Assembly: GCA_036653135.1 (NCBI GenBank)
Contig: JAVVUO010000009.1
Coordinates: 890-64,889, forward strand
Direction: 5' to 3'
Length of the DNA: 64,000 bases
Origin: Lachnospiraceae bacterium
GTDB taxonomy: Bacteria; Bacillota; Clostridia; Lachnospirales; Lachnospiraceae
Below the pieces are notes generated by a model. It was given only the letters and a program-made list of their open reading frames with translations. It made no database searches and had not been told where the DNA came from. Within the stretch, counting starts at the first letter, position 1, and each line of letters opens with the position of its first letter. Of this stretch, positions 29,830 to 57,522 are shown one piece after another. Made by a program: the position numbers and the translations under genes.

Positions 29830-29861
29830 GCGGAATCCTCATTATAGAGTAAAAATGATGA

Positions 29862-29946
29862 AAAAAGAATCCTGCTTGCAGGATTCTCCAGCTGCGGAAG
29901 GTCAATTTATTGACCTATTACATCTTTGCCGCAGTGTGATCCTCAC
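29862..29946 (-). repeat. Dispersed 85-bp element, copy 1 (homologous to 56858-56942)
   Basis: Hand alignment 71/85 identical, no gaps; includes the palindrome AGAATCCTGC-AA-GCAGGATTCT plus a U-tract. Confidence 0.9.
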
Positions 29947-29988
29947 GGAGTGCTTTTTATTACAGAGGGGGCACTTTCCTATGTAATG

Positions 29989-30035
29989 AAAAAAGACTCT
30001 TTCCATTATCACGCATGATATAGGAAAGAGTCTTT
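29989..30035 (-). terminator. Intrinsic terminator downstream of yebC
   Basis: 13-bp AAAGACTCTTTCC/GGAAAGAGTCTTT stem with inner TATCA/TGATA, T-run on the minus strand. Confidence 0.75.
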
Positions 30036-56461: not shown

Positions 56462-56728
56462 ATGAGTGATTTAGCTGCAACAAACTGTGGATGTGGATGT
56501 GAAACCAACAACGGCGGAGGATGTTCTTCCATTCTCTGGATTATTATCCTGCTTTCCTGCTGTGGTGGTAATGGTGGTGGCATCATGGGTGGAGATGGCT
56601 GTGGAAGTAATAGCTGTCTGTGGATTATTTTATTACTCTTCTGCTGCGGTGGTAGCGGCGGTGGATGTGGCAGCAGTGGCGGCTGTGGCGGCAGCGGCGG
56701 CTGTGGATGCGGTACTTCCTTCTGTTAA
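56462..56728 (+). CDS. Small Cys/Gly-rich protein with two LWII(I/L)LLxCCGG repeats
   Basis: GGAGG RBS, 88 aa, 15 Cys and 28 Gly, own terminator. Confidence 0.85.
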   Translation: MSDLAATNCGCGCETNNGGGCSSILWIIILLSCCGGNGGGIMGGDGCGSNSCLWIILLLFCCGGSGGGCGSSGGCGGSGGCGCGTSFC

Positions 56729-56738
56729 TTCTACAAAG

Positions 56739-56767
56739 AATCCCGGGAATCTATTCCCGGGATTTTT
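56739..56767 (+). terminator. Intrinsic terminator of the Cys/Gly gene
   Basis: 11-bp stem AATCCCGGGAA-tcta-TTCCCGGGATT followed by TTT. Confidence 0.9.
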
Positions 56768-56770
56768 CTT

Positions 56771-56910
56771 GTGTGCTAGGCATGGCACTAATCTAGCTGG
56801 AGTAAGTCCAGTCACGGATATTTACCGCCAAGTGTAGCAAAACGCAAGTTGATATCAGTAAGGATTGCACTGCGGCAAAGACGTAACATGTCAATAAATC
56901 GAACTGCCGC
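56771..56910 (+). mobile_element. 5' fragment (domain I) of a group IIC intron; no RT ORF or domain V seen
   Basis: Starts GTGTG 6 nt after the terminator stem; GTGC...GCAC pairing around GGCATGG; CTGG-AGTAAGT-CCAG; TAGC..AACGCAAG; CGGCAAA; CGAAC. Collinear with IIC intron 5' ends as I recall them. Confidence 0.65.
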
Positions 56911-56942
56911 AAAAAAAGAATCCTGCAAGCAGGATTCTTTTT
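56858..56942 (+). repeat. Dispersed 85-bp element, copy 2
   Basis: 71/85 identical to the reverse complement of 29862-29946. Confidence 0.9.
56916..56942. terminator. Bidirectional terminator-like palindrome AGAATCCTGC-AA-GCAGGATTCT
   Basis: A-run before and T-run after; abuts the stop of the minus-strand small ORF. Confidence 0.75.
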
Positions 56943-57107
56943 CTATTCTGTTTCTTGTTTTTTAGTATATAGACTATTTAGCATCCATTCATTTTTATCT
57001 TCATGGGAAAGAAATTCCTTGACATTTTCTAACTGCTCTTTTTTTCTACGAATACAAGCATCATCTATTTCATATACACTATTACCTTCAATCATTAATT
57101 TTCCCAT
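56943..57107 (-). CDS. Small hypothetical protein (54 aa, MGKLMIEGNSVYEIDDAC...)
   Basis: GGAGGT RBS before ATG 57107; sigK-like promoter upstream. Confidence 0.65.
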   Translation of the reverse strand: MGKLMIEGNSVYEIDDACIRRKKEQLENVKEFLSHEDKNEWMLNSLYTKKQETE

Positions 57108-57129
57108 ACTTATATTACCTCCATAGTAC

Positions 57130-57155
57130 ATCATATGCTTTTTTTCTCTTATGGT
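57130..57155 (-). promoter_or_regulatory. Putative sigK promoter
   Basis: Minus strand AC-N16-CATATGAT. Confidence 0.5.
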
Positions 57156-57183
57156 CATATTTAAGAGATTTTTTTCATAGATT
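57155..57183 (+). promoter_or_regulatory. Putative sigE promoter
   Basis: TCATATT-N14-CATAGATT. Confidence 0.6.
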
Positions 57184-57204
57184 AGAATAAAAAATGGTGA
57201 TGCA

Positions 57205-57522
57205 ATGGACACTCTTGATACCTTAATTCAAGATAATCACCTGCAAATGATGAAAGCTGCTCTTCCTTATTTGGATTTTTCTCATCAAAAAGAGATTGCT
57301 ATGATTGTGAAATTCATGGAATTACAGCGTACTGCAGAATTGTTTCAATCTCCTAGCAACAATCTTCATATGTGTTCAGAGGAAGAAGATAATCAGGAAG
57401 AGCCTCAAATTCAAATGCTAAATGCCATTCGAAAATACTGCACCGATAAAGAAAAAGAAACCGTAGATACCGTCATCAATTTTGTACAGATATTCTCTAC
57501 TTATGGAACACTCTTCACCTAG
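57205..57522 (+). CDS. Hypothetical protein (105 aa)
   Basis: GGTG RBS; helical; HLQMMKAALPYL. Confidence 0.75.
   Translation: MDTLDTLIQDNHLQMMKAALPYLDFSHQKEIAMIVKFMELQRTAELFQSPSNNLHMCSEEEDNQEEPQIQMLNAIRKYCTDKEKETVDTVINFVQIFSTYGTLFT

Follow-up and report, generated by a model that had tools for sequence, protein, structure and literature searches.

The insert under study lies between two convergent genes in the window, by which is meant the whole 64,000-nt stretch of DNA that was analysed. The coordinates of its parts and of the related elements discussed below are collected in Table 1. To its left is an ORF encoding a small Cys/Gly-rich protein of 88 aa, for which no Pfam family was found. 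About half of the protein consists of Cys and Gly, and two LWII(I/L)LL-CCGG modules can be recognised in it. The gene has orthologs in genomes of the same genus, with a DNA identity of ~75% across the genus. It is followed by an intrinsic terminator with an 11-bp stem, AATCCCGGGAA/TTCCCGGGATT (56739-56764), the loop TCTA, and then TTTCTT. GTGTG begins at 56771, 6 nt past this stem, and the region is closed by a 13-bp palindrome with a T-run that was picked up by the terminator scan. The motifs GGCATGG, TCTA, a GG-AGTAAGT-CC hairpin, TAGC..AACGCAAG, CGGCAAA, and CGAAC, which the initial annotation had listed after GTGTG, were all recovered on the sequence in the order and at the coordinates claimed. 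A- and T-runs lie on either side of the closing palindrome, which therefore probably serves as the terminator of the convergent gene to its right as well.

Uninterrupted alleles were looked for in relatives and were seen in two species of the same genus (genomes G216 and G214). In both, the ortholog of the Cys/Gly-rich gene is followed by this same terminator (...CCCGGGTTTTTCTT, ending ...GGGTTTTTCTT), which passes directly into the 3' end of the convergent gene that is also found here. From these empty sites, the left edge of the insertion was deduced to be exactly 56770/56771 and the right edge to be ~56944. The other species of the genus have unrelated spacers at the locus, and the stump was found in none of them.

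Table 1. Coordinates of the insert, its neighbours, and related elements; entries without a prefix refer to the window, and those with C alone to other contigs of the same genome
Feature	Coordinates	Strand	Basis or remark
Cys/Gly-rich small protein, ORF	56462-56728	+	ORF list
Intrinsic terminator of Cys/Gly-rich gene with T-run	56739-56770	+	Sequence, fold
Stump assigned to a group IIC intron 5' end (nt 1-91)	56771-56861	+	BLAST, covariance model, IIC 5' consensus
Junction zone CAGTAAGGAT	56856-56865	+	Three-way alignment comparison
Right two-thirds of ~138-nt repeat (profile positions ~55-140)	56862-56946	+	nhmmer profile, alignment
Terminator hairpin of the repeat, AAAAAGAATCCTGCAAGCAGGATTCTTTTT	56913-56942	.	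Terminator scan, folds of both strands
Convergent gene right of insert	56943-57212	-	
Full repeat copy in window	29858-29995	-	
Further repeat copies	C60:2933-3069; C15:3310-3452; C1:19477-19615		
Tandem arrays of the repeat	G183:C9:34258-34716; G098:C19:73304-73674		~130-nt period
Solo terminator hairpins of the repeat	C6:88712-88742; C3:59627-59655; C21:14973-15004; C4:19542-19577		
Stump on contig C45	C45:12587-12682		
Stump on contig C23	C23:35956-36031		Locus L004, 1501-1568
tmRNA gene beside C23 stump	C23:36134-36480		Locus L004, 1671-2017
Group II intron of a different class with internal deletion	C41:13846-15010		Locus L011
Miniature ORF-less IIC-like intron	C40:15600-15830		Locus L013

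Identity of the left part of the insert

The initial annotation had described the insert as the 5' remnant of a group IIC intron at a canonical post-terminator site. For the left part, this was borne out by homology, by a covariance model, by the 5' consensus, and by the empty sites. On the strength of these sequence comparisons, 56771 to ~56861/65 is assigned to the 5' end of a group IIC intron, nt 1 to ~91-95, and we regard this identification as sound. Both the 5' boundary, GTGTGCTAGGCATGG, and the initial domain I hairpins are contained in this part. The assignment is supported by the following data. When 56771-56855 was searched against 200 family genomes, homologs were obtained in 18 other genera (E values of 1e-7 to 6e-25), and these were often located at contig ends, as is the case with multi-copy mobile elements. 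When longer stretches of the relatives were inspected, the homologous segments turned out to be the start of complete group II introns. BLAST comparison with intron 5' ends in other genomes gave E values of 1e-18 to 1e-25, and the identity of the stump to the 5' ends of full-length introns from other genera and to its sister stumps was 82-91% over nt 1-68/91. For the full-length relatives taken by themselves, a value of 82-88% was obtained over this part. A covariance model (R1) built from seven relatives only, with the window sequence left out, scored 69.3 bits at 56771 (rough E value of 4e-16). This was its sole match in the 64-kb window, and in the resulting alignment no non-canonical pair occurred within nt 1-56 of the stump.

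The boundary was compared with the class C 5' consensus GUNYGCCNRGCAUGG (Abebe et al. 2013, PMC4028801), which GTGTGCTAGGCATGG fits at 14 of 15 positions, the exception being position 7 with T instead of C. The stump shares the fit to this consensus with the E.r. intron of E. rectale (7UIM/7UIN), with B.h.I1 of B. halodurans, and with the O. iheyensis intron. As in group IIC introns, its position is a few nucleotides past the stem of an intrinsic terminator, in the orientation of the gene. The upstream terminator is the 5' exon and the target of the intron.

The Rfam data required separate consideration. No match was obtained in the window at the gathering score, domain V (RF00029) was not matched there, and at relaxed thresholds the only group II signal was RF02003 with 18.8 bits against a threshold of 49. 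Of the two kinds of alignment by which the initial annotation could be checked, that to the Rfam group-II-D1D4 models was therefore negative at the gathering score, while that to IIC introns by BLAST and the covariance model was significant. The negative result with the D1-D4 models is uninformative, since in the relatives the RF02001 match sets in only at intron nt 82, where little of the stump is left. The absence of an RT and of domain V, which had also been claimed, was confirmed by Rfam and by the ORF list, in which no RT/maturase ORF occurs between 56771 and the next gene. The empty Rfam result would also be expected if the 140-nt stretch resembled intron motifs by chance or consisted of a short repeat only, and its distal half truly is repeat (see below). 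This explanation is regarded as refuted and is left with practically no likelihood, given the BLAST E values against the 5' ends of complete IIC introns, the E value of the covariance model, and the absence of the 91-nt segment from typical copies of the repeat.

Among the full-length relatives, the intron at locus L049 (genome G078) follows a hairpin and T-run and starts at position 143 with GTGTGCCAGGCATGG, which matches the IIC 5' consensus at 15 of 15 positions. RF02001 (D1-D4-3) scores 109.7 bits at 224-393 in this locus (98-114 bits across the relatives), and RF00029 (domains V/VI) matches at 1973-2048 with 46.6 bits. The 451-aa ORF between the two matches contains RVT_1 and GIIM only, the endonuclease domain being absent. 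The nearest solved relatives of this RT are the E. rectale IIC RT (7UIM, 2e-107) and the GsI-IIC RT (4e-98), and RT fragments of E. rectale and R. intestinalis are also among the closest, whereas LtrA (IIA, 2e-47) and the T.el IIB maturase (7e-44) match much less well. The stump is like the E. rectale IIC intron in that it is homologous to introns whose endonuclease-less RT is nearest to the E. rectale and GsI-IIC RTs. Relative to an intron of ~1,910 nt, the remnant corresponds to nt 1 to ~91-95, and the remainder of domain I is missing, as are domains II-VI, the RT gene, and the 3' boundary. Unlike the E. rectale, B.h.I1, and O. iheyensis introns, it is a fragment and not a working intron, and with neither domain V nor exon-binding sites nor an RT gene, it is unable to splice or to move.

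The repeat and the joint

The right part of the insert was found to belong to a ~138-nt repeat. An nhmmer profile built from nine full copies of this repeat from the same genome matched 56855-56946 at profile positions 49-140 with an E value of 4.5e-22. The same profile gave 58 matches in this genome, estimated to represent roughly 40-45 distinct places. Among 201 genomes of the family, 41 contained the repeat, in some cases as tandem copies. It occurs in a long (~138 nt) and a short (~100 nt) variant. A typical copy follows a T-run and consists of ATTACATAGGAAAGTGCTTCCTATGTAAT (hairpin), AAAAAACGCTCCGTGAGGATTGC, ACTGCGGCAAAGATGTAATAGGTCAATAAATTGACCCGCCGCAG, and GCGGAGAATCCTGCAAGCAGGATTCTTTTT (terminator). 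The copies that were inspected lie directly behind the T-run of a gene's terminator, and each ends in a terminator of its own. No Rfam family and no known transposase could be attached to the repeat, which is apparently undescribed so far. The repeat and IIC introns choose the same kind of site. The repeat is not derived from the intron, from which it differs in starting with the hairpin ATTACATAGG...CCTATGTAAT and not with GTGTG. Rfam showed no group II similarity in a typical copy even at E<=10, and typical copies align without the 91-nt intron segment.

The sequence at 56862-56946 is a copy of the right part of the repeat, including its terminator hairpin, and the left hairpin ATTACATAGG...CCTATGTAAT is missing at the window stump. 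On the basis of the profile match, the distal sequence CGGCAAAG...GCCGCAG is assigned to the repeat rather than to domain I of the intron. That the distal half might be diverged domain I was considered and rejected, as it matches the repeat profile and typical copies of the repeat carry no group II signal. The motifs CGGCAAA and CGAAC, which the initial annotation had placed in intron domain I, consequently go to the repeat, with CGAAC representing a private variant of the repeat's ATTGACC. The loop AATAA (56894-56898) had been proposed to be able to pair, in the manner of an EBS1, with the exon end TTCTT with one mismatch. It is instead the conserved loop of the GTCAATAAATTGAC hairpin of the repeat. 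In IIC introns EBS1 is located further into domain I, so that a true EBS1 is impossible in a stump that ends at nt ~95. The palindrome at the end of the sequence was present as described, but the terminator thought to cap the stump proved to be the repeat's own.

Hairpins of the form GAATCCTGC-NN-GCAGGATTC, corresponding to the terminator of the repeat, were also found on their own at several sites of this genome, where they terminate unrelated genes and are up to 100% identical over 28-31 nt. These solo hairpins are either extreme 5'-truncated copies of the repeat or the source of its terminator.

The joint between the two parts was examined by three-way alignment. The intron alignment is unambiguous to nt 91 (56861) and fades within CAGTAAGGAT, which can be read either as intron (CAGTAATGGTAT in the relatives) or as repeat (CCGTGAGGAT in the consensus). 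To judge from its letters, CAGTAAGGAT is an imperfect microhomology (CAGTAA-GGAT) at what would be a deletion joint.

Truncated copies in the genome and the family

When the whole L049 intron was compared with this genome, only three pieces were obtained, all of them 5' stumps behind terminators (nt 1-81, 1-91, and 1-67). The arrangement of a terminator followed by the intron was thus common to the window, C45, and C23, and it was also seen in most relatives. The C45 stump extends from nt 1 to ~90 and is fused to the repeat at position 33; synteny of its locus with same-genus genomes is limited to the upstream gene. The C23 stump extends from nt 1 to ~68, and its pairings are decayed, with 8 broken pairs in the first 50 nt according to the covariance model. 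It lies ~100 nt from the 3' end of a convergent tmRNA gene (RF00023, 154.8 bits). The three stumps end at nt ~68, ~90, and ~95, have different 3' partners, and diverge by 9-19% over nt 1-68. In this assembly, which is ~90% complete, no RT of the intron lineage was found by tblastn with the RT of the relatives, and no 3' part of the lineage was found. A full-length copy in the same genome was also sought by blastn and tblastn, with none obtained, and an assembly of ~90% completeness could miss one.

The frequency of such fragments was surveyed by searching the first and the last 418 nt of the intron against the same 401 family genomes. Fragments starting at nt 1 were found to end at nt 61, 92, 108, 133, 137, 140, 144, 155, 245, 255, 270, and 348. 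Most of the family stumps are preceded by a terminator and have unrelated DNA behind them, while those in genomes G288 and G359 are internal deletions. An over-representation of 5' stumps relative to 3' fragments was rejected, as the search with the last 418 nt gave a similar number of 3'-only fragments, in a comparison that is rough because two candidates were scored per genome. The view that a retained 5' end is unusual could therefore not be upheld, there being three stumps in this genome and, family-wide, stumps with scattered ends that are about as frequent as 3' fragments.

The majority of bacterial group II intron copies are truncated (Abebe et al. 2013, PMC4028801), and fragmentation at the 5' or 3' end has been attributed to incomplete reverse transcription or rearrangements (Tourasse & Kolsto 2008, PMC2504315). 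The window stump is like these copies in being truncated at its 3' side. It is unlike them in that its deletion joint lies inside a second, unrelated repeat, with a second stump being similar. By nhmmer, the repeat was found behind the window and C45 stumps only and behind no other stump of the family. A stump in genome G364 appeared by eye to be fused to the repeat as well, and this candidate was rejected by nhmmer.

Other group II introns were also observed in this genome. At least 13 domain V/VI matches were obtained, many with the D5 sequence CCGCCGTGTACCGAACGGTACGCACGGTGG. Because these sit mostly on sub-kb contigs (C72, C76, C78, C91, C100, C106, and C111) and also at the ends of C7, C15, and C77, the genome is deduced to carry many intron copies that broke the assembly. 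The ~1.05-kb intron of another class at locus L011 lies exactly in the loop of the left hairpin of a repeat copy, being preceded by ATTACATAGGA and followed by AAGTGTTCCTATGTAAT; it scores 85.7 bits with RF02003 (D1-D4-4) and 49.6 bits with RF00029, and its RT remnant is only 243 aa. At locus L013, directly behind the terminator of a short-variant repeat, a 5' end of ~75 nt (TTGTGCGCCATGGGCG...) is joined straight to domain V/VI (RF00029, 45.2 bits).

Origin and fate of the stump

The initial annotation had suggested that the insert may be a stand-alone RNA. No promoter-like site was found on the + strand between the two terminators (56730-56945), where the stump lies directly behind a strong terminator, and same-genus species lack the insert at this site. 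An exapted small RNA of ~170 nt that ends at the terminator and acts, for example, as a decoy or regulator would be consistent with the stable fold of the region (z = -7.7, although most of this is owed to the two terminator hairpins), with the intact local hairpins of nt 1-56, and with the strong terminator downstream of the stump. Such a role is nevertheless very improbable, since the three stumps of the genome vary in end point, in sequence, and in 3' partner, the pairings of the C23 copy have been lost, and the terminator belongs to a repeat that occupies ~40-45 places in the genome. The suggestion of a stand-alone RNA is thus unsupported, and the stump is considered to be transcribed at most by read-through. 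The RNA of the window stump may be under selection, with which its sequence is compatible because its local hairpins are all canonical.

With regard to its origin, it is highly probable that a IIC intron was inserted between the terminator and a resident repeat and that a deletion of ~1.85 kb followed, leaving a neutral relic. The intron, which was mobile and belonged to a group IIC lineage widespread in the family, retrohomed into its usual kind of site, a few bases past the terminator stem and T-run of the Cys/Gly-rich gene and bordering on a copy of the ~138-nt repeat. The repeat copy would have been there first, an order of arrival that we infer, and the repeat alone was seen at this site in no same-genus relative examined. 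The deletion would then have produced the joint that the alignments show, in which intron nt ~91-95 meets repeat position ~49-55 at the imperfect microhomology. Lost with it were the remainder of domain I and all of domains II-VI, along with the RT gene and the left hairpin of the repeat. It may have occurred as a later slipped-strand event near the 12-bp hairpin of the repeat or through faulty integration.

Alternatively, the stump and the partial repeat may have been formed in one step during faulty retrohoming, by a template switch at the microhomology. After reverse splicing, synthesis from downstream would have switched from the repeat DNA (position ~49) to the intron RNA at nt ~95, and only the 5' end of the intron would then have been copied into the 5' exon. 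Group II RTs are able to switch templates, and the joints in the window and on C45 are no more than ~10 nt apart in the intron but at different positions in the repeat (~49 and ~33), each at a short microhomology. The presence of three 5' stumps and zero 3' fragments of the lineage in this genome is likewise consistent with formation in one step. This route is considered unlikely, however, because the end points of the stumps in other genomes are spread over nt 61 to 348 and the DNA that follows them is unrelated, and because those of G288 and G359 are plain internal deletions, as ordinary decay predicts. Furthermore, we know of no experiment in which internal switching of this kind was shown for IIC introns.

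Two of the three stumps of this genome, those in the window and on C45, are joined to the same repeat family at intron nt ~90-95. If terminators were chosen at random, the chance of two joints to the repeat is roughly estimated at ~0.006, a value for which ~45 repeat-bearing terminators among ~1000 were assumed and not measured. The repeated joint hints at a process more specific than random decay. Possible causes are deletions stimulated by the 12-bp hairpin, tolerated deletions into dispensable DNA, and a template switch at integration. That the fusion of intron and repeat is the footprint of a mechanistic link, and not a coincidence, is thought quite unlikely. Such a link could consist of a IIC RT that switches templates between intron RNA and the RNA or DNA of the repeat, or the repeat could be a non-autonomous passenger that uses the machinery of the intron to reach post-terminator sites.

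The stump is an ordinary dead copy of a well-known class of retroelement, and its value lies mainly in correct annotation, with the first ~91-95 nt being intron and the remainder a different repeat. The locus also offers a clean natural case of a IIC intron targeted to the position behind a terminator, for which sister species supply the empty sites, and it records that only 5' stumps are left of a IIC lineage formerly active in this species. The repeated joint of intron stumps with an uncharacterised repeat is the one point that merits a second look.
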